Part shown: piece after piece, positions 18,969 to 63,651 of the stretch | Numbering within the stretch: the stretch's first letter is position 1 | How the letters are laid out: each line of letters starts with the position of its first letter | Origin: Thermoanaerobaculia bacterium | GTDB taxonomy: Bacteria > Acidobacteriota > Thermoanaerobaculia > Multivoradales > UBA5704 | NCBI GenBank assembly: GCA_035995205.1 | Contig: DASYKS010000002.1 | Coordinates: 51,026 to 115,025, forward strand | Reading direction: 5' to 3' | DNA: 64,000 nt | Notes under the pieces: model-generated | The model's input: only the letters and a program-made list of their open reading frames with translations | Told to the model about the DNA's origin: nothing | Database searches by the model: none | Program-made: the position numbers and the translations under genes

Positions 18969-21900
18969 TCAGGGCGTCACGTTCACCGAGACCACCGCGC
19001 CGGGATCGTCGATGAATTCCACGCACTCGTGGACCATCTGAAGCCGGAAATTGTAAGGCCCCGGTGTGGTCGGCGCTATGCCGTTGATCTGCAAGGTCGC
19101 CTGCTGCCCGGAGATGAGACTCGAAGCGAGATCGACTCGAACCGGATTCCAAGCCGGGCTTCCGATCTGCGCGAGGCGGTACGCATCGCACTGTGGCCCG
19201 ATCGGGCTCCAGGTGAGGTTGCCGTCATTTTTGACCGTTACGGACGCCGAATAGGGCTGCCCGGCCGCCATGGTAGCCGGTACGTTCTGAGCCACGATCT
19301 GCGCATGCTTCCCACCGACTCGGACCGTGACAGCCGGGCTTGAGGAGCCGAAGAATTCGACGCATTCGTGGACCATTCGCAATTGGAAGATGTAGGTCCC
19401 GGGCGTCGAAGGCGCGATCACCGCAAAGGTCAGGGTCGCCTGAGCGCCGGGTGCGACAGAGGCGGGGAGCTCGGCGCGGATCGGGTTCCAAGCCGCATTG
19501 CCGACTTGGGCGAGCCGATAGGCGTTGCATTGCGGTCCGATCGGATTCCAGGTGATTGTGCCGGTGTTCTTGACCGTCACGTTCGCGAAGTACTGCCGGC
19601 TGGGGGCCATGCTCGTGGGGACGAACAGACTCAGGAATTGCGCGTTCTTCGTAGCAGCCTGGACGTCGACGATGACGCTCGGGCTTGAGGAGCCGAAGAA
19701 CTCGACGCATTCGTGGACCATTTGCAGTTGGAAGGTATGGGGCCCGGTGGTCGAAGGCGCGATCACCACGAAGCTCAGGGTCGCCTGCCCGCCGGAGTCG
19801 ACGGGGGCGGAGAAATCGACGCGAATCGGACTCCAGGCCGCATCGCCGACCTGGGCGAGCCGATAGGCGTTGCATTGCTGTCCGATTGGATTCCAGGCGA
19901 TGCCCCCGGTGTTCTTGACCGTCACGCTCACGGTGTACGGCTGGCCGGAGACCATGCTTGTGGGCACGCTCAGGTTGAGGAACTGCACGTTCTTCGTGGT
20001 GTCGAGGCAGGTGCTGGGCGCGGCGTGGCAGGCTTCGTTGCCGTTCGGATGGGCGACGACCTGGTAAAAGTAGGTCGAGCTCTCGGCGACCGAGCTGTCG
20101 GTGAACGACGATGTCGCAACGTTGTCCGCGATCTTTGCGAAGCCCGCGTTGCAACCAACCTCGTTGCGGAAGACGTCGTAGACCGTTCCAGCCCCCGAGG
20201 GGGTCCAGGACAGGCCGACCTGGTTCGTGCCGTCGGCCAGCGTCAGCGCAGGCACCGCCGGCTGGGAACAACCCCGGAAACAGGTGTTGGCCTCCGGGTC
20301 GGTCGTGCAGGCGATGCCGTGGCGACTGAACGCCGCGAACAGGTTGCATGAATGAGGCGTGCCGTTTGCCAGGTTGCCATCGTCGTCGTCGACCGCCCGC
20401 ATCGTCTTCCACCAGGAGCCGACGTTGCAGCCATTCGAAGTGTAGGTCGGGCCGGTGACGCAAGTGAACGCGCTCGCCGAGGTCGGCCGAGACAGGTACC
20501 AGAGCCGTTCGAGCACGTTCCAGGCGGCCGCTCCGCCCGGGCTGGGCAGGTCGCGGTTGGCGAAATCCCAGACCGCCTCGGTGGGCACGTGGCCCTCGCA
20601 GTGGGCCTCGCCGGCACAGGGGCCGTTGTGGGTGGTGCTGGACAGGCAGAACTGCTGGGTGAAGTTGGCGACCGTATGCGGCGCACCCGAGACGTGCTTG
20701 CCCCAGTCGATGTCGCGCAGCCCCGTGCAGGCGGTGCAGGGGTCGCCGTAGGCGTTGCAGTTGCCGAGCCGGAACCCGGGTCCGACGCAGGAGTTGTGAA
20801 GCGTGAGAGCGGCGACCACGTCGGCGTAGGCCTCGCTGCTCGAGTTGTTCAATCCGTTGCCGTCGTTCTGGTCGAGCCCGTGGCCGTATTCGTGAAGAAT
20901 GAAGCCCGGCTCCTCGCCGCTCGCGCCGCAGTTGCCCCCGACCGCGCGATAGAGCGTAATCCCGTCGCCGTTCCAAAAGCCGTTGCAGGTACCTGTGTTG
21001 TTGACCGAGACGGTAAACTGGCCGTTGAGCCAGGCATTGCCCGGCAACCAGCCGAGGGCGATTTCCTTGCCGCGGTTGACATTGTAGAAGCTGGTGCGCG
21101 AAGAGCGCGTGTTGCCCGCGCCGCCGACTCCCGGCGTGGTGCAATTGTTGCCCGCCGCCGAACCGAACGGCAAGTTGCCCGATGGGTTGGTGGTGAGCGA
21201 GATCGGGCCGCAGGTGTCGGTGATTCGGACGCGCTGCCCATTCAGCGTCGAGGTGAGCGGCGTGCCGCCGTACGTGTAGAGGCCGGCCGAATTCGTGAAC
21301 AGCCCGCCCCCGAGGTCGGCGAAGGGCATGGGGCGGAGTGTCTCGGTGCCCGCCGCCAAGTCCGCCGCCACTCCGCCCGTCGCTTGGGCGTCGAGGTCGG
21401 TGTCGATGAATTCCACGACTTCGCCGGTCGTGGCATCGATGCGCCCGCGCCAGGTGCCGAGGACTCCCTCCCGGCGAAAGGCGATCTCCCAAACCGTCGA
21501 CAGACCGTAGCCCTTGGCGAAATCGAATCCCTCGGGCAGGGCCACCGGCAGCAGGTGGAGCGAGCCGCGATCCAGAATCGTGTCGGCGAGCGGATCGAAG
21601 CCACCAACGTAGGAAGCGAGCGCGGCGTAGGCGGACTCACGGCTGACCTTGACCTCCGGGGCCGCGGCGTCGGACGGTGGCAGTAGCTCGCTGCCCATCT
21701 GGATCAAGTTGCCATGGCCGACGCGGAAGACGATGCGGGCGCCTTCGACGGTCAAGCCGCCGCGCACCAAGTCGAAATCGACCAGCCAGAGCGAGTCGGA
21801 GGCTTTTCCCGAGCGCCCCGGAGAGAGCCGCAGCTCCCGTGCCTTGACCCCGAAGAGCGCCGTATGGTCGGCGACGAACCTGCGCGCGATGGATTCGAGC

Positions 21901-27554: not shown

Positions 27555-28721
27555 ATGAGCCCCACCGAACCCGCAACCTCTCCCGGCTCCGCCGGATCAG
27601 AACGTTGGTACGACCTTGGGCCGGTCGAAGAATTGCGCGCCAAGCCGCTGCAGCAGATCGTGATCGGCCGGACCAAGATCGCTCTGTCGTTCGTTGGCGG
27701 CGCCTTCGGAGCGGTTTCCGGGGCCTGCAATCACGTCGGCGGACCGCTCGGCGAAGGGCACCTGGATGGCGAGTACGTCGTCTGCCCATGGCACCACTGG
27801 AAGTTCCACCGCACGACCGGCGAGGGGGAACCTGGCTTCGAGGAGGACCGCGTGCCGCGCTTCTCGTTGCGCGAAGAGGACGGTCACCTGTGGGTCGATC
27901 TGCAACCCGCGACGCGACGGCAGAAGGCGCCGCACGAGCCGCACCGCCTAGCCCGCAAGGTCGAGCGAGAGATGGGGCCGATCCGCGTGCTCGGGATCGC
28001 CACGACCGTGATGGACAACGCGTTTCCGCGTTATTCGACCTCGGACGAGCTGCTCGAGACCGCGTTGGCGCACGCCGGAGCGCATGGCGCTGTCACCCGG
28101 CTGATCCGCCTGCGCGAGTTGGAATTCCGCGCCTGCGAGGGGTACTACTCGAAGAGCTCCCACGCCTGCACCTGGCCCTGCTCGATCACCCAGATGGACC
28201 CTGAAGACCAACTCGACCAGGTCTACGAGGGGCTCGTCCATTGGGCCGACGTGGTGCTGGTCTCGACCCCGATCCGCTGGGGCTCGGCCAGCTCGCTCTA
28301 TTACAAAATGGTCGAGCGGATGAACTGCGTTCAAAACCAGGTCACCCTGTCGAACCGGGTCCTGCTGCGCAACAAGGTCGCGGGGTTCATCATCACCGGC
28401 GGCCAGGACAACATCCAGGCGGTCGCCGGCCAGATGCTCGGTTTCTTCGCCGAGATCGGCTGCGTCTTCCCCCAGTTTCCCTACATCGCCCACTCGCGCG
28501 GCTGGACCGCCGAGGACATGGAAAAGAACGTCGCGTTCGTCAAAAAAAGCACAGAGCTGCACGACGCCGCCCGCGAGCTGGCCGAGCGTTCGCTCGCGAT
28601 GGCCGAAGCCCTGGTCACCCACACGATCGAAGGGGAGCACCTCGTGCGCGCCGGACGCAAAGGATTCTCCCGCGAGGGAATCGAAGCCCCCGCGGCGATC
28701 GCGGCGGAGGCGGAGAGCTGA
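27555..28721 (+). CDS. Rieske [2Fe-2S] domain fused to a flavodoxin-like NADPH-dependent FMN reductase / iron-sulfur flavoprotein domain
   Basis: 388 aa from the ATG at 27555. The Rieske motifs are CNHVGGPL and CPWHHWKF. The second half reads RVLGIATTVMDNAFPRYSTSDEL...VLVSTPIRWGSASSLYYKMVERM...GFIITGGQDN, which is the FMN_red pattern. Confidence 0.7.
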   Translation: MSPTEPATSPGSAGSERWYDLGPVEELRAKPLQQIVIGRTKIALSFVGGAFGAVSGACNHVGGPLGEGHLDGEYVVCPWHHWKFHRTTGEGEPGFEEDRVPRFSLREEDGHLWVDLQPATRRQKAPHEPHRLARKVEREMGPIRVLGIATTVMDNAFPRYSTSDELLETALAHAGAHGAVTRLIRLRELEFRACEGYYSKSSHACTWPCSITQMDPEDQLDQVYEGLVHWADVVLVSTPIRWGSASSLYYKMVERMNCVQNQVTLSNRVLLRNKVAGFIITGGQDNIQAVAGQMLGFFAEIGCVFPQFPYIAHSRGWTAEDMEKNVAFVKKSTELHDAARELAERSLAMAEALVTHTIEGEHLVRAGRKGFSREGIEAPAAIAAEAES

Positions 28722-28723
28722 CG

Positions 28724-29980
28724 ATGAAGCGTTTCGCCCTCCTCGCCGTCAGCGTGGCGCTCGCGGGCTCCATGGCGACCGCCGATCTCGCCGCCCAGGC
28801 GCCGCGGCGGCCGTTTCCGCGGCATACGGCGTACGCCGCCGGCTCGATCCTCCCCGGTCATCGGTCCCGGCCGCAGCTCGATGCGGCGGCCTTGGCGTTC
28901 TATCGCCAGTGGCGAGCGCGCTATCTGGTCGCCGGCTGCGGCCCGGGGCGCTATTACGTCTCGGTCAACGCGGACGGCAAGTTTCCGGACCCGGAAGTCC
29001 TCTCGATCTCCGAAGGGCACGGCTACGGCATGCTGCTCACCGCCTACTTTGCCGGCGCCGATCCGGACGCGAAAACCGCCTTCGACGGTCTCTATCGCTA
29101 CTTCCGCGACCATCCGAGCGACCGATATCCGAACGTGATGGCCTGGAAACAGCTCGCCGATTGCGCCGACGCGCCGGACGGCCAAGACACGGCGACCGAC
29201 GGAGATCTCGACATCGGTTACGCCCTCTTGCTCGCCGACCGGCAGTGGGGAAGCGCCGGGGCGATCAACTACCTGGCGGAGGCACGAAAGGTGATCCGGG
29301 CGATCCGCGCGGTTGAGCTCCATCCGGTCGATGCGACAATCCAGCTCGGCAGTTGGGTCTCGACCGATCAACCGCGGCATTTCAACTCGACCCGCACGTC
29401 GGACTTCATGCCCGGTCATTTCAAGGCGTTCCGTCTCGCCACCGGCGACGCGCGCTGGGCGACCGCGGCGAATCGCGTCTATGTCCTGGTCAAGCGCATG
29501 CAGACGGTCTATTCCCCCGCGACCGGTCTGCTCCCCGATTTCATCGAAAGGACGAACGCGGTAGCCCGCCCGGCGAGCCCCGGCTTCCTCGAAGGTCCGG
29601 CCGACGGCGCCTACTTCTACAACGCCTGCCGAACCCCGTGGCGCCTCGGTCTCGACGCTCTGCTCTCGGGCGATGTCCGCGGTCGGACCGCGGTGCGAAA
29701 GATCTCCACCTTCCTCCGAACGGCGGCGGCGGGCGACCCCGAACGGCTGCGCGCCGGTTTTCGGCTCGACGGCCGAAACCTTCCCGGCAACGACTACACC
29801 GACCTCTCCTTCTTGGCCCCGGCCACCGTCGGCGCCCTGCTCGACCCCGAGCATCCCGAATGGGTCGAGGGCCTCTGGGACGAGATCGTCAGCGCCCCGA
29901 TCCAAGAGGCGGACTACTACGGCAACACCCTCAAGGCGCTCGCCCTGCTCGCCGCCTCGGGCAATGCTTGGCAGCCGTAG
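28724..29980 (+). CDS. glycoside hydrolase family 8 (endoglucanase/chitosanase-like), secreted
   Basis: 418 aa. It has a signal peptide. Motifs: ISEGHGYGML (the GH8 catalytic Glu motif), DGDLDIGYALLLAD and YNACRTPWR. Confidence 0.75.
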   Translation: MKRFALLAVSVALAGSMATADLAAQAPRRPFPRHTAYAAGSILPGHRSRPQLDAAALAFYRQWRARYLVAGCGPGRYYVSVNADGKFPDPEVLSISEGHGYGMLLTAYFAGADPDAKTAFDGLYRYFRDHPSDRYPNVMAWKQLADCADAPDGQDTATDGDLDIGYALLLADRQWGSAGAINYLAEARKVIRAIRAVELHPVDATIQLGSWVSTDQPRHFNSTRTSDFMPGHFKAFRLATGDARWATAANRVYVLVKRMQTVYSPATGLLPDFIERTNAVARPASPGFLEGPADGAYFYNACRTPWRLGLDALLSGDVRGRTAVRKISTFLRTAAAGDPERLRAGFRLDGRNLPGNDYTDLSFLAPATVGALLDPEHPEWVEGLWDEIVSAPIQEADYYGNTLKALALLAASGNAWQP

Positions 29981-29995
29981 AACGGAGATAGGCCG

Positions 29996-30247
29996 GAAGC
30001 CACCCAGAAATTCGCTGAAGCGACCCGGATGATCGCCGAGGCCATCCGGCCGAACGGTGAAGTCACCGAGGCGAACCCTGAAGCCACAGACTGGGACGGT
30101 GAAGCCACCGAGAAATTCACTGAAGCCACCGAGAAATTCGCTGAAGCCACTGAGAAAACCCCCGAAGCCACCGAGAAATTCACTGAAGCCACGCAGAAAA
30201 CCTCTGAAGTCCCCCAGAAATTCGCTGAAGCCACACAAAGTGCCTAA
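29996..30247 (+). repeat. array 1, forward arm: 12 exactly phased 21-bp tandem units (core GAAGCCACC plus a variable 12-mer)
   Basis: Units start at 29996, 30017, 30038, 30059, 30080, 30101, 30122, 30143, 30164, 30185, 30206 and 30227. The best copies read GAAGCCACCGAGAAATTC(A/G)CT. Confidence 0.9.
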
Positions 30248-30249
30248 TT

Positions 30250-30560
30250 CTTCGGTGGCTCGACCGATTGATCGGTCCAATTCGTTGAATTTCTCGGTGA
30301 CTTCACCCTTGGGTTGGGTGGTTTCAGCCGTTCGATGGGTGGTTGGAGGGAACTTTTGCGCTACTTGGGCGGCCGTTTGTGTGGCTTCAGGGGTTTTCTC
30401 GGTGGCTTCAGCGAATTTCTCGGTGGCTTCGCACGGTCCGTCTGTTGCTTCGGGGCGTTTTGCGGTGCTTCACCCCCGTTTTGCGTGGCTTGGACGCCCA
30501 AACTGCGTGACTTCACGGAAAATTCTGTGTGGCTTCGCGTGAAGCCCCGCGAGGCTTGGA
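30250..30560 (-). repeat. array 1, reverse arm: about 14-15 units of the same family in inverted orientation (period 20-22 bp, more degenerate)
   Basis: GGTGGCTTC-type cores end at 30261, 30304, 30325, 30346, 30367, 30388, 30409, 30430, 30451, 30471, 30492, 30514 and 30536. The segment 30381-30430 is the reverse complement of 30122-30171 (48/50). Confidence 0.85.
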
Positions 30561-30641
30561 CCTTCGGTCGCGGGTTTTGAGAGGTTCCCGAGAGTTGCCC
30601 TCTCCCGGAGACCTCGTTTTAAGATTGGGCCTTCAGCCAAA

Positions 30642-31535
30642 ATGGAGAGCTACCCCATGACCATCGCCGCATCTCCGACCGAACCGAACGCCCCGACAAC
30701 GATCACCGAGCACGAGATGCAGCAGGTCGAGCGCGCGAACGCCACGGGGCGGCAACCGGTCGTGTTCGTCCACGGCCTTTGGCTGCTGCCGAGCAGCTGG
30801 GATCGCTGGGCGACCGTCTTCGAGGAGGCGGGTTACACCGCGCTCACGCCCGGCTGGCCGGACGATCCGGAGACTGTGGAAGAGGCGAACGCGCACCCGG
30901 AGGTCTTCGCCCACAAGACCGTGGCACAAGTCGCGGACCACTTCGACCAGATCGTTCGCGCGCTACACAAGAAACCGGCGATCGTCGGCCATTCGTTCGG
31001 CGGCCTGCTCGCGCAGATCCTCGCCGGCCGCGGCTGCTCCTCGGCCACGGTGGCGATCGATCCCGCTCCCTTCCGCGGAGTCCTGCCGCTCCCTTTGTCC
31101 GCGCTCAAATCCGCCTGGCCGGTGCTCGGCAATCCGGCCAACCGAAACCGCGCGATCCCGCTCACCTATGACCAATTCCGCTACGCCTTCGCCAACGCCG
31201 TGAGCGAAGAAGAGGCCAAGGAGCTGTACGCCACCTTCGCCGTTCCGGCCGCCGGCGCGCCGCTCTTCCAGGCCGCGGCCGCCAACCTCAACCCGTGGAC
31301 CGAGGTGAAAGTCGACACCGAAAACCCGGAGCGCGGCCCCCTCCTGATCATCTCCGGCCAAAAGGACCACACCGTCCCCTGGGCGATCGCCAACGCGTCC
31401 TTCGAGCGAGAGAAGAGAAACGAAGGCGTGACCGAGATCGTCGAGATCCCCAACCGGGGCCATGCCTTGACGATCGACAGCGACTGGCGCGAAGTCGCGG
31501 ACACGGCGCTCGCCTTCGTCCGGCGCTTCGTCTAG
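30642..31535 (+). CDS. alpha/beta-fold hydrolase
   Basis: 297 aa. VVFVHGLWLLPSSW is followed by the nucleophile elbow VGHSFGG. Confidence 0.75.
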   Translation: MESYPMTIAASPTEPNAPTTITEHEMQQVERANATGRQPVVFVHGLWLLPSSWDRWATVFEEAGYTALTPGWPDDPETVEEANAHPEVFAHKTVAQVADHFDQIVRALHKKPAIVGHSFGGLLAQILAGRGCSSATVAIDPAPFRGVLPLPLSALKSAWPVLGNPANRNRAIPLTYDQFRYAFANAVSEEEAKELYATFAVPAAGAPLFQAAAANLNPWTEVKVDTENPERGPLLIISGQKDHTVPWAIANASFEREKRNEGVTEIVEIPNRGHALTIDSDWREVADTALAFVRRFV

Positions 31536-31539
31536 AGGC

Positions 31540-32532
31540 TTACAGATCCTCTTCCGTCGGAGGAACGTCGTAGATTTCGATCAGGTCCTGGAACCGGGCG
31601 GCGAGCTTCTTCCCCGCGGCGGCGGAGAGAGGGCCGTCGGGCCAAGCGCTCCGGATCTCGTCGATCGCCTTCTCCGCCCCCGCCCGGTCCGGAGGCGGGA
31701 TCCGATCGAAAAATCGCTCGTTGGCTCCCTCGGAGAAGAACGCGTCTCGCGGCCCGAGAGCGGCCAGACGGCCGGCCTCCCCGCGGGCTCCGAGCTCGAA
31801 GATGTGAAGGTCTGGTTCGTGGTCGTTGTCTCGCCGGAAGGCGCCTTCGAGGGTGCGGAGCGCGGTCAGGCGCTCGGGCTTCGGGACGCTCGCCTGCTGC
31901 AGTCGGTCCCTGGCCTTTTCCACCGCCGCCTGATCTTCCGGCGAGGGGAAGTTGGCATAGGTGAACAGAACTCCGAGGCACTGGGCGAAGTCCGAGATCT
32001 GCTGCTCGTCGCCGCCTTCGATCGCGACGCTCAGGTTGACCAGCGTCGCCCCCGCCTGGAACGCGACCACGTCGTGCAGAACGATCGCCTCTTGCTCCAC
32101 CCCGCGTTGCGCGTCGAAAGGCTCCAGCTCGCGGGCGAGCGGTCCGGGATTCGCCAGAGGCGCGGTCAGGCTCGCAAAATCCACCGGCGGTAGCGGTCGA
32201 AGGTGCCACCAGACCGATAACCCCACCCCGACCACCAGCACCGCGGCGAGTGCCTGCCACGCGGGCCGCATGACCGACCACCCCGCCTTGCGGCCGAACG
32301 GCAGCACCTTGCCCTTCTCCTCGGCTTCCTCCCGCGCCCGTTCGTCGCTCTGGAACCGCACCGATTCGGTGTAGATCTCGTAACACTCCGCGCAGTGATC
32401 GAGGTGACCGGCCACCTCCTCCCGCTCGGGAGGGCCGAGGCGGCTCTCGATAAACGCTGCGATCGCTTCAAGTTGCGGATGTGGGCTCAACAGCGGTTCT
32501 CCCCCGGGCCGGCCTGTGATTCTGGGTGACAC
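31540..32532 (-). CDS. membrane-spanning zf-HC2 anti-sigma-factor-like protein
   Basis: 330 aa with a GTG start. It has HLDHCAEC (H-x3-C-x2-C), one TM helix (WQALAAVLVVGVGLSVWW) and a periplasmic C-terminal domain. No sigma gene lies upstream. Confidence 0.6.
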   Translation of the reverse strand: MSPRITGRPGGEPLLSPHPQLEAIAAFIESRLGPPEREEVAGHLDHCAECYEIYTESVRFQSDERAREEAEEKGKVLPFGRKAGWSVMRPAWQALAAVLVVGVGLSVWWHLRPLPPVDFASLTAPLANPGPLARELEPFDAQRGVEQEAIVLHDVVAFQAGATLVNLSVAIEGGDEQQISDFAQCLGVLFTYANFPSPEDQAAVEKARDRLQQASVPKPERLTALRTLEGAFRRDNDHEPDLHIFELGARGEAGRLAALGPRDAFFSEGANERFFDRIPPPDRAGAEKAIDEIRSAWPDGPLSAAAGKKLAARFQDLIEIYDVPPTEEDL

Positions 32533-32843
32533 GCGGTGCTCGATCCCATTGGACGGACAAGACTACGTCCGTTACCGCCTGGATCGCGACGAATAGTTAC
32601 AAATCGCTCCGGCGGGCGCCACGGCTAGCCCTTTTTTCTGCTTGCGCGGTGAAAACCCGGTCTTGCGTCCGTCTCCTCCTGCAAGATGTCGCCAGGCTCG
32701 TTGAAAACTGGGGCCAAGCCTACGTGCCAATCCTGCCAGGTTAGCGTAAACTCTTGGCATCAGGCTTCAAAACAACTTTTCGGTCGAAAGGGCAACCCGC
32801 GGGCAATCCTTCTCTTGACCGCTGCCCGCACCCTCCATGAGCT

Positions 32844-35800
32844 ATGCGAACCGATCTCGCCCTGATTTCATTAGACCGTCCCGCAAGGCGCTGGGGTTGG
32901 ACTTCGAGGGCTGGAGCCTGTGCGCTCCACACGCAAAATCGGCTACCGCTCGCGATCGAACTCTGCATAGCCATCATGAGTCTCGTGTTCATATCTGGAG
33001 GATGCCCCTCGAAGGCGCAGAAGTGCGATGCAGAGCTCAGTGTTCTACGGCAGGTTTCAAGGGGCAAATTGATCTTCCTGGGGCGTTTCACCGGAGATCC
33101 TTCTTTTCTGCGGTCCAGAGAAGATCAGAGTGGCGAAAGGCCCTTGTCCCGAGTCGTGGCTGGCCTCCGACAATGTTTGGAGCAGGAAGGTTCACCCAGA
33201 GCGATCCACGACATCGGACTTCTTGACTTCTTTCAAGGACGGTTTCGTCAAGCGGCTCTCTCCTTCGAAGCGGCAGCGGTCGCAGAGCCTTTAAATGCCC
33301 TATTCCTAAATGACCTGGCGGTTGCTCGTCTTGCATTCTCGAAGCTGCACCCCGAGAATCTTCCCGCTGCTCTGGCTGCGGTCGACGAGGCACTTAAGGT
33401 TAAGCCAGCACTGGAAGAGGCGTGGTTTAACCGAGGCGAGATTCTTTCACTTCTTGGTTTGAAGTACCAAGCGGCCTCCGCTTGGGAAACTTATCTTCTA
33501 CTCGACGGATCTTCTTCCTGGAGCGCTGTCGCACGAGCTCGTGAAGCGAACCTCGCCCTGCCTTCAATCGAGGAAACATGGAGCCGTCAGCTGCGCGAGA
33601 TCAAGCAACTAGGCGTGAGCCCCTCAGCCGCGCAAGCGGTTGTAAACAGGTTCCCACACGCAGCAAGGCTCTACGTGGAGGAGGAAGTGCTCTCCGGTTG
33701 GGCCGACGCGACGCTTCAAAATAATCCAGGTCGGGCAGAAACCCAACTGGCAACCGCACGGGCGATCGGGCACGCGGTCTTTAATCGGACCGCGGATCCT
33801 ATGACGCGCGATGCCGTGAATATTATCGATCAAGCGCGGGAGGTAGGGAATTCCGGCCTTCTCAATCAACTAGCCTTGGCCCATGCAGCATTCGGTCGCG
33901 CTATAAAGCTCTACAAGGAGCAGGATCTGGAGGAGGCCCATTCTTTGTTTGTCCGAGCCGCGAGTGGACTTGGAGCTTCGGGTAGCCCTTTTGTAGGTTG
34001 GGCTGAGTTCTACTCCTCTCTCTGCGACCATTACTCTGATTCCGAGGGAGCCCTGCAAGCGTACGAACATCTTAAAGAGACATTCGGTTCGACGCCATAT
34101 TCGACTCTTGCTGCTCGCATCGAGTGGATGCTCGGAACTGTCGAGAGCAACCGTAATCAGCCCGAGGTCGGTCTAAACCATTTCCACGCCGCCTTGAGTC
34201 GCCTCGACTCAAGCATTGGTTTTCAAGCCTCGGCCTTCGTTCACGTTCTCCTTGCAGAAGCATACAAAACGCTAGGTGACCAGGATAACGCCTGGCGGGC
34301 GCGGCTAGCGGCTCTTCCAATGCTCGCTCATTTAGGTGATCGCCGCCGACTGCATGCCGCCCTCTGGGAGGCGTCCGACGCACTTCTTCGGCAGAAGGCT
34401 ACTCGACCGGCCCTCGACGTGATCGAGGAAATGCTGGCTAATGACGAGTTGTGGGCGAATCCGGGCGCATTGGCCGAAGCACTGCAAATCAAGACAGAAG
34501 CGCTTCAGGCTTTAGGTAGATCTCACGAAGCTCTGGAAACTGCGCGGAGGGGCCTCAATTTAGTACGTATGATGCCCCCAAGTGCGCAAAGGGAACGAAT
34601 CGAAGTGGCACTTCAGCTTGCTGAAGGAGAGTCTCTTTCAGCAGATCAACCTCGGCGCGCGATCGAAATCTTAAGCGAAGCTCTTGAGAGCGATCTCAAT
34701 CGCGGGTTCTTCTTTCGAGAGGTGCGCCTCCGAATCGCTCGGGCGCAAGCGGCCGCAGCAATGGGACGGGTGGCGCTCGCCAAGTCAGATCTTCTTCAAG
34801 TAATCGCCGAACAGGAACAAATTCGCCGAAAAGTCGCGGATCGACAGCTGCGACTGAGTTACTTCTCGGGTGTTCAGGCTGCGTTCGACTTAATGGTTAG
34901 CATTCAACTTGCAGGCAGGGATAGTGCCGCTGAGATCCTAGAAATTGCAGAACGAGCCCGCGCCCGCCAGTTTCTTGACTCACTCCTCCTGCTAGATGGA
35001 AGCAGGATCCGCGGTAACGTGGGTATGCAGCCTCAGCGGCTTGCCGAGATCATTAAACACTTACCTCTTCGTACGACGCTTGTAGAATTCTTCGTCTTGC
35101 CAGATCAGTTGGTTGTTTGGACTATACATGCTGGAGTTCTGAGCGAATCTAAACAAAGAGTCGATCGAGAGACACTTAAGGGAGAGGTTCATACATTTCG
35201 CCTTGCTCTCGCAAGGCACGGTACAATTCACGAGATCCAGGCCGCGGGCGCCCGTGTCTTTAACCGGCTTCTGCGGCCTTCTCTGGCGGGACTTCCAAAT
35301 GAATCCCTTGTCCTCGTCCCCGACCGCTTCCTTCTTGATGTGCCATTTGCCGCACTCTACGATTCCCAGAGGCGCCGGTTTTTGCTCGAGGACCGGGAGA
35401 TCATGCTGGCGCCTAGCGCATCGTTTTTTCTCTCGACCGCTGAGAGAGAGCCCGCACCCGAATATAAGGATGGCATAGATGCTCTCGTCTTCGGCAATCC
35501 AGCATTTGATTCGAAGCGTTCAAGAGACCTTTCTCGCCTGCCGGCTGCCGCTGCGGAAGCCGCCGGTGTCGCAGCCCAATATTCGTCATCGCGGCTATTG
35601 CTAGATGCTTTCGCGACACGAGAGGTATTCACTCGCGAAGCGGGGAACTGGAAGGTCGTACATTTCGCTGGCCATGCCCTCGACGATGCCGATACGCCCG
35701 ATCGCTCGCGGCTGGTATTCGCTCCAGATAGAAGAGGTGATCCCGGGTTCCTTTACGCCTCGGATATCGTTGGCTTGCCATTTAGAAAGACTCAGCTCAT

Positions 35801-36101
35801 AGTACTGTCGGCCTGTCAATCCGTTAGTGAGGATAAGGGCCGAGAGGGCTTTTCTGGCCTTGTAGCAAGTTTCCTTTCGGCAGGAGTGCCAGCAGTTATT
35901 GCAAGTTTATCCGACGTCAGAGATCGTGCGGCCCGAGATCTGATGCTTGATTTTCATCGACAGCTTGCGGCAGGAATGCCCGCGGTTGCGGCACTGAGGT
36001 TTGCTCAGTTGAGCATGATGCGTAGGCCCGCTAGTCGATCTCCCGCAGATTGGGCAAGTTTTGAAATTTTTGGCCGTAATCAGGCCAGGAGGGCGCAATG
36101 A
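32844..36101 (+). CDS. TPR-repeat / CHAT-domain (caspase-like) protease; start uncertain (32844 or ATG at 32976)
   Basis: 1085 aa. The long helical-repeat region contains, for example, AWFNRGEILSLLGLKYQAASAWETYL. The C-terminal CHAT domain has the catalytic His in VVHFAGHA and the Cys in IVLSACQS. No signal peptide. G+C is visibly lower than the flanks. Confidence 0.85.
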   Translation: MRTDLALISLDRPARRWGWTSRAGACALHTQNRLPLAIELCIAIMSLVFISGGCPSKAQKCDAELSVLRQVSRGKLIFLGRFTGDPSFLRSREDQSGERPLSRVVAGLRQCLEQEGSPRAIHDIGLLDFFQGRFRQAALSFEAAAVAEPLNALFLNDLAVARLAFSKLHPENLPAALAAVDEALKVKPALEEAWFNRGEILSLLGLKYQAASAWETYLLLDGSSSWSAVARAREANLALPSIEETWSRQLREIKQLGVSPSAAQAVVNRFPHAARLYVEEEVLSGWADATLQNNPGRAETQLATARAIGHAVFNRTADPMTRDAVNIIDQAREVGNSGLLNQLALAHAAFGRAIKLYKEQDLEEAHSLFVRAASGLGASGSPFVGWAEFYSSLCDHYSDSEGALQAYEHLKETFGSTPYSTLAARIEWMLGTVESNRNQPEVGLNHFHAALSRLDSSIGFQASAFVHVLLAEAYKTLGDQDNAWRARLAALPMLAHLGDRRRLHAALWEASDALLRQKATRPALDVIEEMLANDELWANPGALAEALQIKTEALQALGRSHEALETARRGLNLVRMMPPSAQRERIEVALQLAEGESLSADQPRRAIEILSEALESDLNRGFFFREVRLRIARAQAAAAMGRVALAKSDLLQVIAEQEQIRRKVADRQLRLSYFSGVQAAFDLMVSIQLAGRDSAAEILEIAERARARQFLDSLLLLDGSRIRGNVGMQPQRLAEIIKHLPLRTTLVEFFVLPDQLVVWTIHAGVLSESKQRVDRETLKGEVHTFRLALARHGTIHEIQAAGARVFNRLLRPSLAGLPNESLVLVPDRFLLDVPFAALYDSQRRRFLLEDREIMLAPSASFFLSTAEREPAPEYKDGIDALVFGNPAFDSKRSRDLSRLPAAAAEAAGVAAQYSSSRLLLDAFATREVFTREAGNWKVVHFAGHALDDADTPDRSRLVFAPDRRGDPGFLYASDIVGLPFRKTQLIVLSACQSVSEDKGREGFSGLVASFLSAGVPAVIASLSDVRDRAARDLMLDFHRQLAAGMPAVAALRFAQLSMMRRPASRSPADWASFEIFGRNQARRAQ

Positions 36102-37036
36102 ACGAGTATACGCTTGAGTTATCCTTCTCAGGTCTCTGCCTTTTCACGTTTCACGGAGACCGCAAGAAACCAGACGAAGTGAATGTGCTCTTCCTCGCAT
36201 CAGAAGGATGTCACGAAGGACACCAGAATCAGAGCGCTAGTGATCTGCACACCCCACGCTTGACCTTTAGTCCTCAAGACCTTGAGGAAGCAAGCGTTCC
36301 TTATGACCTATTTCCAGATCTTGACGGGCGACAGTTAGCTATTCTGCGTCTGCCGGATCTTCCGATGGAGATCGTTGCCCCATCTAGAAGTGAATTACTC
36401 GCTTGCTGGCGAGATGAAGACAGGTACAATGATCTCCCGAAATCGCCGCCGACTGACTCCGATGAAACTTGGCTTGACTGGATCCCTTCTCTTAGACTGG
36501 TAAACCCTGAGACCCCAATTCCCACGGAGGAGGTTCCTTGGCTCGGACTCCGACCGGTTGTAATACCGCGGTTACGCCTGACAAAAGGGGATCTGAGTGC
36601 CGCATTCTTTTTGCGCGACAGAAACAACGATTACGTTTTTTGGGAATTTAAGGCGAGCGAGTCGGACGAGGCAATCGATTACCAGGCTATGGCCGGGATC
36701 ATCCGTTTAGAAATCCATGGTATTCCCGTGGAGGAGTCGGTTGAGATCGTCGCGGACGACGGGAAGTTTGAAGTCTCACTTCGGCCTCGACGATATCCGG
36801 ACGGGACGGTAGCTGACCGTGTGCGCGCGAGTTTCACGAATCTAGTCTCGGTCGACCCGAGGTTTCCTCCAAACGTTCTCGAACATTTTATACATTTTTA
36901 CGACCTCGTTGAATTCGGGGGGCGTCGGCCTAAGCTGCGAGTTCCCTACGCTCGCAGTGCGCCGATCACATCTGGGACAACTTACTGCCCAGTGAGCACT
37001 CACGGTGGGACTTCCACAGGGAGATGTAAAGAGTGA
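36098..37036 (+). CDS. orphan hypothetical protein (312 aa) in the CHAT-S8 operon
   Basis: Strong SD (AGGAGGG) 7 nt upstream. ATGA overlap with the CHAT gene stop and GTGA overlap with the S8 gene start. No motif that I recognise, and no signal peptide or TM helix. Confidence 0.75.
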   Translation: MNEYTLELSFSGLCLFTFHGDRKKPDEVNVLFLASEGCHEGHQNQSASDLHTPRLTFSPQDLEEASVPYDLFPDLDGRQLAILRLPDLPMEIVAPSRSELLACWRDEDRYNDLPKSPPTDSDETWLDWIPSLRLVNPETPIPTEEVPWLGLRPVVIPRLRLTKGDLSAAFFLRDRNNDYVFWEFKASESDEAIDYQAMAGIIRLEIHGIPVEESVEIVADDGKFEVSLRPRRYPDGTVADRVRASFTNLVSVDPRFPPNVLEHFIHFYDLVEFGGRRPKLRVPYARSAPITSGTTYCPVSTHGGTSTGRCKE

Positions 37037-38397
37037 TAGCGCCTATTCCACGATGCCTTTTGGGCAGTAATCAGCGTCACGCTGTTGACCACTTCGACGT
37101 TGATGGAGACGGGTTTGTGGAGAATGTTGACTTGGTGCGAGCAGTCGGTGCCTATGCCGGGCGGCCGCTGCTAGCACGCTGGACAAAGGAAAGGGAGAAG
37201 ATATTCGGTGCTGTTGCTAACCAGCTAATCGTGAGATTGACTAAGGGCGTCCCGAAAAAAGATGCGGTGTCAATGTTACAGGCTGCGTTGTGTGACAGGC
37301 CACATTTGCGCGATAGAATCATGATTCGTGGGAACACAAAGGATCTGCTTCTCGTCGAGCTTCGATCTACTCCAGGGGATCTTGAGAAATCGACAGATGA
37401 GGTCCCGTATCTGCTTACGGCGCTTCCGCGTCTAAAAGGTAATGCCTATTTCGAAGCTAGCCCCAACTATTTGGTTTTCGCACCTGAAGATATTGTCGGA
37501 AGTGCGACTAGCATAGCGGCAGGGCCGAAGCAGGATGACATTTTGCGAATTGGAGGTAAAGCGGCTTGGGGAGAGGGCGGAAGTACTGACATTCGAGTCG
37601 CCATTCTCGACTCTGGAATTGAAGCGACGCATCCTGACCTGGCAGGGAATATCTACTCGGATTCGTCGGGCGCAATTATTGGAGCGAACTTTTCTCAGAG
37701 CGGATCGCTTAATGACGACAGCTATCACGGTACTTTCTGTGCTGGCATTATTGGTGGCACCGGCGTCAAGCATGTAAATGGTGTTTGCCTACAGGTTTCG
37801 CTGATGCCAATCAAATTCTTGGGCCCAGATAGCTGCGGGTCGATTTATGATGCGATGAGAGGTATCGACTACGCGGTCGCTAACGATGCGCATGTTATCT
37901 GTGCCTCATGGGGGGGCATGCCTTTTGACAAAAACATGCGAGACAAAATCTCTCAAGCTAAGAACAGTTTATTCGTGACTGGCTCAGGGAATTTCACCCA
38001 CAACCTCGACACAGATCCTCCTTACTATCCTGCGAGCTTCGGCCTCCCCAATATGATCACAGTTGGTGGCACAGACAATCATGGTAACCCGATTACATGT
38101 TGGGGTGTGGGAGAGAAGAGTGTCCATCTGCTTGCACCTGGAGAGTCAGTCTATTCTACATTGCCACCTCCATTGCTTTGGGGAAGAGATAAAGGAACGT
38201 CGCTCTCTGCGGCCTTTGTTGCCGGGGCTTGCGCGCTCCTTGGGGCGGTTGCACTTAAGGGCGGTCGCCAATGGGACCCTGCGTGGGTCAAGTCAACCCT
38301 GCTACAACGGGTTTTACCGTTAGGTAGCGCGAAGTTGCTCTGCGTTTCGGGTGGCGAACTCAACCTTGCAGAACTGATAAAATTGCCCTTGCCATGA
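37033..38397 (+). CDS. S8-family subtilisin-like serine protease without signal peptide (N-terminal roughly 170-aa propeptide-like region)
   Basis: 454 aa. Catalytic triad: D in VAILDSGIEATHPDL, H in SYHGTFCAGIIGG, S in GTSLSAAFVAGACA. Oxyanion Asn is in GSGNF. Confidence 0.85.
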   Translation: MIAPIPRCLLGSNQRHAVDHFDVDGDGFVENVDLVRAVGAYAGRPLLARWTKEREKIFGAVANQLIVRLTKGVPKKDAVSMLQAALCDRPHLRDRIMIRGNTKDLLLVELRSTPGDLEKSTDEVPYLLTALPRLKGNAYFEASPNYLVFAPEDIVGSATSIAAGPKQDDILRIGGKAAWGEGGSTDIRVAILDSGIEATHPDLAGNIYSDSSGAIIGANFSQSGSLNDDSYHGTFCAGIIGGTGVKHVNGVCLQVSLMPIKFLGPDSCGSIYDAMRGIDYAVANDAHVICASWGGMPFDKNMRDKISQAKNSLFVTGSGNFTHNLDTDPPYYPASFGLPNMITVGGTDNHGNPITCWGVGEKSVHLLAPGESVYSTLPPPLLWGRDKGTSLSAAFVAGACALLGAVALKGGRQWDPAWVKSTLLQRVLPLGSAKLLCVSGGELNLAELIKLPLP

Positions 38398-38674
38398 GGT
38401 TGCTGCTTCGGGATTGCGACGTGAGATCAAGCTCATTGTGTCTTTCACGGAGTTCCTGAAGTGACATCCGTTGGTCCGTGAGTGAAAGATGGTTCTAGGT
38501 CATCTGGCCTGAGGGAACGACGTCAGTAGGCGAGTCCGCCGGTTGCCTGCCCAGTCTCGCCGGCCGAGCGATGTTAGGGGGCGATTTTCCCACTCGCCCT
38601 CCACCCCTGACACCTAGCTCTTCGTATAGTCTCGACAAGAACCAAGAGGGACGTAGAGAAGGGACCCCCCGAGG

Positions 38675-62266: not shown

Positions 62267-62836
62267 GTTGCGGCCCCTGCCACCGGCCTGTTGACGCGGC
62301 ACCCCGGAGTTGCGACCCAAAGTGCCTCTGTTGCGGCGCGCGCCCCTGCTACTGCAACACAAACCTCCGGTTTCTCGAATACGGGGACCGGTCACACAAC
62401 ACAAATCTGTGTTGCTGCAACACGAGGCGCCACTCCCACAACACAAGTCATCCCGGTCGTGCGCGCCGAAATCACTGTTGCAACACAATGGAGTGGTGTT
62501 GCAACACGAAGCACCGGTGCGCGGACGCAAGAAAGTGGTGCGCGGACGCTACAATCCGGTGGGTAGCGTCCGCGCACCAGTTTCTTGTGTCACAACACCA
62601 CTCCGTAGCGTCCGCCCACCGGTGGGTAGCGTGCGAAAAGTAGTTCGTAGCGTCCGCTCACCACTCGATAGCGTCCGCTCACGGATGGGTAGCGTCCGCC
62701 AAGTGGTGAATAGCGTCCGCTCACCGGTGGGTAGTGTGCGGAAAGCGGTGTCTAGCGTCCGCTCACCGGTGCGTAGCGTGCGCGACGGGGTGGGTAGCGT
62801 GCACGACGGAGTTTGTCGTGTCGTTCAGCCCTTGCG
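62267..62836. repeat. array 2: 27 exactly phased 21-bp tandem units in two mirror-image arms
   Basis: Left-arm cores (GTTGCAACAC / GCGCGGACGC type) start at 62267, 62309, 62330, 62351, 62393, 62414, 62435, 62477, 62498, 62519 and 62540. Right-arm TAGCGTCCGC cores start at 62564, 62606, 62627, 62648, 62669, 62690, 62711, 62732, 62753, 62774 and 62795. The centre is the inverted repeat 62529-62551 / 62564-62586 (22/23). Confidence 0.9.
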
Positions 62837-63495: not shown

Positions 63496-63651
63496 GCAGG
63501 ATCGCCGCTTCTCCGCCAGAATCACTGCTTCTGGCTCCCAATCACCGTTTCTGTCCCAGAATTACTTCGCTTCTTGCAAAATAGCTACTGCACCAGAATC
63601 ACCGCTTCTGTACCAGAATCCCTACTCCTGTACCAGAATCCCCGAAGTGCG
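63496..63651. repeat. array 3: about 8 tandem units of about 20 bp, consensus CCAGAATCACCGCTTCTGTA
   Basis: AATC cores occur at 63500, 63520, 63540, 63560, 63580, 63597, 63617 and 63637. The best units contain the internal dyad CAGAA-n7-TTCTG. Confidence 0.8.

Follow-up and report, generated by a model that had tools for sequence, protein, structure and literature searches.

Convergent arrays of 21-bp units form a dispersed family in Thermoanaerobaculia and in part adjoin genes for a small, predicted DNA-binding protein

A 64,000-nucleotide stretch of a Thermoanaerobaculia bacterium genome (GenBank assembly GCA_035995205.1, contig DASYKS010000002.1, positions 51,026 to 115,025; hereafter the window) contains, between a GH8 gene and an alpha/beta hydrolase gene, an intergenic element at 29996-30585 composed of 21-bp tandem units arranged in two convergent arms. 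This element belongs to a real, previously undescribed dispersed family of conserved architecture in Thermoanaerobaculia and Holophagales, members of which adjoin the gene for an uncharacterised protein of about 165 aa, here designated Y. The window copy, which lacks a Y gene, is on balance probably a phased array of Y binding sites, the founding copies of which would lie beside Y and from which the remaining ones would have spread as copies truncated on the Y side. Further loci are referred to below by L numbers and individual Y proteins by P numbers.

A pattern scan of species-representative genomes, with duplicates counted once, detected the same core and period at at least about 30 loci in five metagenome-assembled genomes (MAGs), four of them Thermoanaerobaculia or unclassified Acidobacteriota and one Holophagales. 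The original prediction, made from the sequence of the window, had named absence of the array from relatives, with no family elsewhere, as a finding that would refute it; the distribution found is the opposite. Family elements measure about 0.5 kb (~0.45-0.65 kb) and have two convergent arms, of types A and B. At each locus the plus-strand cores always precede the minus-strand cores, divergent arms never being seen, and the spacings between cores are 21, 42 or 63 bp within arms and 70 or 91 bp over the centre; where a locus appeared to have one arm, the second was present in a degenerate state. Both arm types are recognisable across loci, the A arm by a characteristic order of its outer unit variants and the B arm by ACGCAAAAC-type outer units 20-22 bp apart and the terminus ...GCGAGGCTTGGACYTTCGGTCGCGG. 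The arms were contiguous in every locus examined, with cargo between them in none. The arrays are intergenic, most beginning 0-70 bp after a stop codon, and about 11 of 21 were placed between convergent genes by a crude gene call based on the GC content of third codon positions (GC3). In the searchable literature, queries on repeat elements of Acidobacteria and on iteron arrays in inverted orientation returned nothing relevant.

Matches to a three-core DNA pattern in other phyla were, among those listed, essentially only single-orientation arrays, indicating that the convergent layout is specific to the Thermoanaerobaculia/Holophagales clade. The pattern itself was discarded as a copy-number census, its matches in other phyla being mostly single-orientation 21-bp repeats that are probably coding. 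The window copy could be aligned end to end with the elements of L001, L002, L029 and L033 at 76-83% identity, and for comparison four-fold degenerate sites of the window and L001 are 68% identical in the GH8 gene and 74% in a Rieske/FMN-reductase gene. In these four alignments indels are either at most 4 nt or exactly 21 nt long, which bears out the gain and loss of whole units that had been proposed, and mismatches among related elements cluster at unit positions 7, 9, 10, 16, 17 and 19.

Y genes and arrays adjoin wherever tested. In six loci, which cover all five MAGs, the A arm begins right where the Y gene ends, and the same abutment was found in L118, from the metagenome of the window, and in L119-L122. 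No Y gene lies within the 64-kb window; one (P0002), with a canonical GAAGCCAC array downstream, is carried by contig Ga0395523_00000386 of metagenome 3300041409, which is also the source of the window (contig Ga0395523_00000132), and that contig is likely to come from the same genome. Loci of 29 Y relatives were fetched, distributed over at least 15 MAGs and often several per genome. For the 28 with downstream sequence, taken from genome contigs, the top autocorrelation period in the 800 bp downstream of Y was 21 or 42 in every case (28/28), against 4 of 28 upstream control regions, and in most Y-relative loci the dominant k-mer occurred as a plus-strand run followed by a minus-strand run.

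Behind Y paralogs and distant homologs the 21-bp period and the convergent arms persist, but the sequence of the unit changes together with Y. Units differ among Y clades (GAGATCAC, GAAGTCCCC, TGCGTCAYTGAATC, GGAATGTTCC and CGGACGC): GAGATCAC is the array unit or core of P0024, GAAGTCCCC that of P0025 and TGCGTCAYTGAATCGGAGAGT that of P0026, a protein 31% identical to the L100 Y protein and followed by TGCGTCAYTGAATC units, and the more distant P0060 also has a 21-bp convergent array downstream, made of CGGACGC units. In P0024, P0025 and P0026, the proteins of the first homology set with non-canonical array cores, the N of the 'DLNR' motif of helix 2, invariant elsewhere, is replaced by C or V.

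The first homology search recovered just 26 relatives of Y, every one of them annotated as hypothetical. A profile search of 1.84 billion cluster representatives yielded 326 Y clusters at E <= 1e-3 (50% identity), whose listed members are nearly all about 120-200 aa long. The family had no match in Pfam, PADLOC or PDB sequences and sub-threshold matches only in NCBIfam and PHROGs, and no Rep, ParB, ParR or TubR family was among its matches. In an AlphaFold2 model built on the family alignment, a helix spans residues 4-42 (predicted local distance difference test, pLDDT, >90), residues 45-85 are disordered and a winged helix occupies residues 89-155 (pLDDT ~85). Foldseek comparison of this model returned winged-helix DNA binders only, among them Sso10a-2, PadR, SlyA/MarR and the DNA-binding domain of CodY, all as weak matches (E ~1e-2), and the invariant basic residues of Y fall in helix 3 and the wing. 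Y is predicted to be a small protein that binds DNA via its C-terminal winged helix, with the long N-terminal helix probably serving dimerisation. The Y promoter is conserved, with the -35 element CTTGCC and the extended -10 element TGTGCTGCAAT about 10 nt ahead of the ATG, indicating that Y is its own transcription unit, reading into the array. A conserved operon partner of Y was looked for and rejected, since the neighbours vary from locus to locus. At L241 (JBBSBW010000028, 2900-3192) a Y paralog was observed without the disordered linker, its N-terminal helix joined directly to the winged helix, and with a GATCTCAG-type 21-bp array behind it.

From the adjacency of the two and their shared divergence we infer that Y binds the units, presumably as DNA rather than RNA. 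Because 21 bp corresponds to two helical turns, all sites would lie on one face of the DNA, and Y would coat each arm head-to-tail. The two protein-DNA filaments of opposite polarity would then present the same face to RNA polymerase or to a replication fork arriving from either side, which fits the usual location of the elements just after gene 3' ends; convergent polarity and this location together suggest that the Y-array complex may act as a bidirectional barrier, insulator or organiser. The phased protein-binding array of the original prediction appears now to be the best reading, having acquired a candidate cognate winged-helix protein encoded directly upstream of the putative founding copies and a 21-bp period that is kept behind distant homologs. 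Several points weigh against it. A Y gene and its adjacent array are physically linked, so that some co-divergence is expected without any interaction, and about half to two-thirds of the arrays have no adjoining Y gene, a spread that a selfish or RNA-level role explains equally well. The arrays lie downstream of Y, where an operator is not usually found; the matches from Foldseek are weak, and the Y model has a predicted template modelling score (pTM) of 0.39 owing to its disordered linker. The barrier, insulator or organiser role, for its part, is drawn purely from geometry and the crude survey of gene context.

The features of the window copy are listed in Table 1. Its 12 forward units, each precisely 21 bp as first described, were read directly and recovered both by a repeat search, which placed the 21-bp spacings of the forward-arm family in perfect register, and by Tandem Repeats Finder (periods 21 and 42 at 30100-30234, scores 165 and 186). 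The 8-mer core GAAGCCAC occurs 14 times in the window (2.4 expected; 14 reached in 0 of 100 shuffles), and 12 of these occurrences fall within 29996-30536, eight on the plus strand and then four on the minus strand. When up to one mismatch was allowed, 10 plus-strand matches were followed by 9 on the minus strand and one more plus-strand match at 30541, with spacings of 21, 42 or 63 bp within the arms, 70 bp over the centre and, outermost in the reverse arm, 22/22/41 bp. The conserved core described earlier is exact in eight of the 12 forward units, but the other units differ from it at one to three positions, and the 12-mer regarded as variable is not free, being drawn from a small recurring set of variants (e.g., CGAGAAATTCRCT and YGAGAAAACCCCY). 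Opposite-strand units of the same family do follow the forward arm, to about 30536. The outermost units offered as an example of matching arms (29996-30012 and 30520-30536) form an inverted-repeat pair of 88%, and inverted repeats of up to 141 nt with 71% complementarity join the two arms; as a whole, however, these are not mirror images, as had been supposed, but two distinct arm types, each conserved between loci. The element covers the interval 29996-30560 originally given and continues about 25-50 bp past 30560 through a terminal module ending in ...GCGAGGCTTGGACCTTCGGTCGCGG.

Table 1. Positions of the element and of adjoining genes and reading frames in the window
Feature	Positions	Strand	Description
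GH8 gene	28724..29980	+	stop codon 16 bp ahead of first unit
A arm	29996..30247	+	12 head-to-tail units, 21 bp each; consensus GAAGCCACCGAGAAATTCRCT
Heptad open reading frame '(EATEKFx)n', 72 aa	30029..30247	+	gene call by Joint Genome Institute (JGI) pipeline; judged no real coding sequence
Centre	30248..30296	.	unit orientation flips; palindrome GACCGAT (30262-30268) / ATCGGTC (30271-30277)
B arm	30297..30536	-	A-arm unit family on minus strand
B-terminal module	30537..30585	.	conserved, GCGTGAAGCCCCGCGAGGCTTGGACCTTCGGTCGCGGGTTTT; homology to L002, L029 and L033 ends here
Alpha/beta hydrolase gene	30642..31535	+	first gene of 8-kb variable island

Each unit contains two conserved blocks, CT-GAAGCCAC and AGAAA, about one helical turn apart, and nAA..CAC is kept even in degenerate units. 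The consensus unit GAAGCCACCGAGAAATTCRCT is not self-complementary, its sole palindrome, TTCAnTGAA (4+1+4), crossing the unit junctions. The outer A-arm units of the window copy (A1-A5) are conserved variants also found in the A arms of other loci; its A-arm type is common to L001, L002, L029, L033 and others, and its centre is conserved in L001, L002 and L033. In the B arm, clean cores begin at 30381, 30402, 30423 and 30529, the inner units are degenerate, and the outer units are of the ACGCAAAAC variant, 20-22 bp apart, with the 22-bp spacing also present in L020, L025 and L033. The GC content of the element is 55-60%, with no AT-rich region, and no direct repeat was found on the flanks of the window copy.

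Copies without a Y gene have the conserved B end in common and vary at the A-side end. On that side L249 retains the last 64 aa of Y, L242/L115 the last 59 aa, fused to another open reading frame (ORF), L079 the last 8 codons, and L035 and L085 just the leader that follows the Y stop codon, while the window copy and most others start within the A arm. The copies directly 3' of the Y gene may thus be the founding ones, the rest being the same element cut back on the Y side to varying extents. One-sided truncation with a fixed opposite end points to copying from the B end or to repeated Y-side deletion, and hints at an unrecognised route of spread for bacterial non-coding elements; no enzyme for such a copying process was found. 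At L094 (DATMZU010000497), L077 and L107 (JANNIH) the B end was observed about 30-100 bp upstream of a same-strand gene, so close that any promoter of that gene must lie in or right after the array. The products of these genes begin with a conserved N-terminal motif, RPILNSPYDYPARYWELDESGQPT; the L094 gene is full-length and presumably encodes a type III restriction/helicase (res-like) protein, and in L107 the motif alone is shared, the remaining ORF being different.

Four other explanations of the arrays were weighed. A role at the RNA level, in which the array would be the 3' untranslated region of whichever gene lies upstream (Y, GH8 or others) and would fold into a long imperfect hairpin that terminates transcription or shields the mRNA from 3' exonucleases, as repetitive extragenic palindromic (REP) sequences and bacterial interspersed mosaic elements (BIMEs) do, with Y merely the source gene, seems unlikely. 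It would suit the usual position of the arrays 0-70 bp after a stop codon, often with gene 3' ends facing both sides, the Y promoter that sends transcription straight into the A arm, and the convergent arms, which give same-sense units in transcripts from either side. The element also folds far better than shuffled sequence (z = -15.8 for the plus strand and -11.8 for the minus strand), although any inverted tandem array would do likewise. Mean A-to-B alignment scores, however, show complementarity within the same element to be no higher than between different elements (75.5 vs 71.3), RNAalifold assigned five related elements a covariation term of +8.95, a penalty, with double changes in 16 of 206 pairs, and neither strand is consistently the more stable (one in 13 of 19 elements, the other in 6). 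The element matches no Rfam family and contains no canonical intrinsic terminator, and a hairpin role leaves the strict 21-nt period and the two arm types unexplained. Retention of the arms for the sake of a cruciform or hairpin thus has no specific support, and a conserved RNA hairpin was rejected on the lack of arm co-evolution, the covariation penalty and the inconsistent strand preference; a promoter or terminator inside the element was dropped as well, its signal not exceeding chance. Direct coding by the arms, either of heptad (EATEKFx)n proteins or of C-terminal read-through extensions of the upstream gene, is hardly credible. The frame in which GAA GCC ACC gives Glu-Ala-Thr (the E frame) is open for 70-140 codons in many arms, the 72-aa ORF is annotated as a gene by JGI, unit position 9, four-fold degenerate in that frame, varies freely, and the stop codons of Y and several other upstream genes lie in it. 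Yet in-frame stops interrupt about one-third of the arms, with three in the ortholog L001, the start codon is not conserved, and substitutions fall mainly at codon positions 1 and 2, the codon-third positions 3, 6, 12, 15, 18 and 21 showing stronger conservation than the first two positions of the variable codons. The arms keep GAA, AAA and ACT codons although genome GC3 is about 80%, B-arm outer units keep 20- and 22-nt spacings, and Pfam matches are sub-threshold and mostly to coiled-coil families, with one marginal match to Sec10_N (32.3 bits vs a cutoff of 27.4). Read-through or in-frame fusion with the upstream gene, striking at first, was abandoned once real genes in all frames were considered: of 13 independent Y-less loci, just about 7 show the in-frame relation, not a significant share. 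The array is, judged by its sequence, non-coding, in agreement with the role favoured for it originally, and gene calls that label such arrays as small 'hypothetical proteins', like the 72-aa ORF here, should be masked.

It is rather improbable that the elements are purely selfish, that is, non-autonomous mobile DNA without a function in the cell, either resembling miniature inverted-repeat transposable elements (MITEs) or arising as one-ended or reverse-transcription-like copies of the Y transcript or locus, with Y a passenger or mobility helper. The copies are multiple and dispersed, occupy 'safe' intergenic sites with variable islands alongside, and combine a shared conserved B end with variable A-side ends (L249, L242, L079, L035, L085 and the window); moreover, paralogs from different genomes are as similar as orthologs, L033 being 83% and the syntenic L001 76% identical to the window copy. 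Their arms are inverted overall, the A and B termini differ in sequence, and the A-side end varies between copies. Against purely selfish spread, the examined copies have no transposase, integrase or reverse transcriptase linked to them, neither a target-site duplication nor a precise empty site could be identified (the element is missing from L003, where the locus has been rearranged), and the 21-bp period and convergent arms persist behind Y homologs of about 30% identity with entirely different units, which argues for selection on the architecture and not copying alone. Selfish spread and binding by Y are, besides, mutually compatible. Iterons and centromere arrays typically consist of direct repeats about 21 bp long and in phase with two turns of the helix. 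This phasing, together with the adjoining gene for a small, predicted DNA-binding protein at the putative founding copies, would favour an iteron origin of the plasmid type or a partition centromere of the parC/sopC type, one of the functions first proposed. Such a role is nevertheless very improbable given the many copies per chromosome and a region of about 60% GC (55-60% in the element) without an AT-rich unwinding element. Y matches no Rep, ParB, ParR or TubR family, and no ParA, ParM, TubZ or Rep gene lies beside any Y gene or array examined (the Y genes of L117-L121 and the window array).

The family may be grouped with protein-bound repeat arrays, with a real chance of its being a new kind of system; it lacks a defining feature of each of the systems compared (iteron arrays, REP/RAYT and RTP/Ter). 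Plasmid iteron systems include P1 incC/incA with RepA, F incB/incC with RepE and R6K with pi. They share with the family direct repeats 17-22 bp long that are phased at roughly two turns of the helix (exactly 21 bp in the element), a winged-helix recogniser encoded alongside (predicted for Y) and an extra array downstream of the protein gene, the P1 incA repeats being in both orientations. Unlike Rep initiators, which have two winged-helix domains, Y has one plus a long helix in 165 aa and is without a Rep Pfam match, and the family lacks an AT-rich origin and is chromosomal, with at least five copies per genome, mostly gene-less. The REP/BIME (REPIN)-RAYT 'REPtrons' are similar in being intergenic repeats of short units, mostly after gene 3' ends and with inverted units, in which one or few copies flank a dedicated single-family protein gene and most are orphans; the REP unit, however, is a palindromic hairpin, in contrast to the non-palindromic 21-mers in long tandem runs found here, and RAYT is a Y1 (HUH) transposase, whereas Y is a predicted winged-helix protein with no recognisable catalytic domain. 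In the RTP/Ter system of Bacillus subtilis, the replication terminator protein (RTP) is a small winged-helix dimer that pairs through a long helix, as predicted for Y; its gene adjoins an inverted pair of its own Ter sites, further opposed sites lie on the chromosome, and the polarity of a site matters. RTP has no sequence similarity to Y, and a Ter site is one site of some 30 bp where the family has arrays of 10-12 units, with both orientations in every element.

Partition centromeres are also built of iteron blocks, as in R1 parC/ParR (PMC2241845). In this system and in pBtoxis tubC/TubR, a small DNA-binding protein, encoded alongside, assembles cooperatively over two blocks of short iterons, and TubR is, like the predicted Y, a winged-helix protein; the present family differs in having no NTPase motor gene, many copies per replicon, inverted blocks and a unit of 21 rather than 11-12 bp. 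MITEs and Rickettsia palindromic elements (RPEs) are likewise non-autonomous, dispersed elements of about 0.5 kb with inverted halves, and as with RPEs a few copies are fused in frame to host gene 3' ends (L079, L242). Unlike MITEs, the family has yielded no transposase-bearing parent or target-site duplication, and its internal tandem 21-bp structure and one-sided truncation series are foreign to MITEs.

Arrays of clustered regularly interspaced short palindromic repeats (CRISPR) consist of identical direct repeats of about 23-55 bp and unique spacers of similar length, in one orientation and with adjacent cas genes. Here the whole unit measures 21 bp, the 'variable' part comprises a few recurring variants and the arms are inverted, which upholds the exclusion of CRISPR in the original prediction. 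No cas gene was found among the array neighbours (GH8, Rieske/FMN-reductase, hydrolase, CHAT and S8 peptidase), a search that did not extend to the rest of the window.

A bolder reading, which we advance tentatively and regard as the less probable outcome, is that Y-array pairs constitute a new class of chromosomal system in Acidobacteriota, in which the small winged-helix proteins of a large family, diversifying rapidly, would each have private 21-bp 'addresses' laid out as opposed arrays, seeded by copying from the conserved B end and serving as polar barriers or organisers at gene ends, with several orthogonal specificities per genome. Such seeding could involve retro-copying, or copying from one end, of the Y transcript or locus. 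The window itself holds arrays of two unit types. Should Y bind the arrays, the 326 clusters (50% identity) would amount to a library, provided by nature, of small orthogonal pairs of protein and DNA address numbering in the hundreds, whose shared 21-bp repeat grammar could be useful for a winged-helix recognition code and for synthetic-biology parts. It would also mean a chromosome-wide system of protein-coated repeats in a major, little-studied soil phylum, with candidate roles in blocking transcription or replication, in insulation or in organising the nucleoid.

The second unit type belongs to Array 2 (62300-62810), with about 24 units of 21 bp each. Its left part consists of TGTTGCAACAC-type units, and two forward GCGGACGC units (62515-62560) are followed by about 12 reverse TAGCGTCCGC/TAGCGTGCGC units (62563-62810), again in a convergent layout. 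Its core is nearly that of the P0060 array (CGGACGC forward and GCGTCCGG reverse; L300), and Array 2 probably represents an orphan belonging to a different Y specificity class. Array 3 (63497-63644) comprises about seven units of 20-21 bp, CAGAATCACCGCTTCTGTAC, in a single orientation; the unit has an internal CAGAA/TTCTG inverted repeat, and the fetched loci contained no match to it. No Y-like gene was found beside Arrays 2 and 3 or in metagenome contigs with the Array 2 unit, a weak result given that those contigs are short.

Pfam matches confirmed the two genes named as flanking the window copy, GH8 and alpha/beta hydrolase, and the GH8 protein is 81-88% identical to its counterparts in three Thermoanaerobaculia/Acidobacteriota MAGs. 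In the window, GH8 is followed by the element, an 8-kb island, partly of low GC, and a gene X. The array occupies the same place in L001, where the order is GH8, element, 6.5 kb of other DNA and X; L002 has GH8, a small membrane-protein gene plus 2 kb, the element and X, and in L003, a rearranged locus, GH8, a membrane-protein gene and X are found and the array is absent. These gene orders indicate that the element has been retained in one intergenic region while variable DNA on both sides turned over.

The island between the array and the conserved gene X (30585-38597, 8 kb) has no counterpart in L002 and L003, and L001 has different DNA in its place. It encodes the alpha/beta hydrolase, a CHAT-domain protein of about 1000 aa and an S8 peptidase, and its GC content drops to 51-57% at 33-38 kb. 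In L001 the hydrolase is reduced to its last codons, about 35 bp off the array end. On the minus strand, a 599-aa ORF (28481-30280) runs antisense to GH8 and the A arm and is a typical spurious high-GC ORF rather than a gene. Elsewhere in the window, a 345-bp tandem duplication at 19335-19997 (1.9 copies, 83% identity) lies in a region that matches several paralogous segments of L001-L003.

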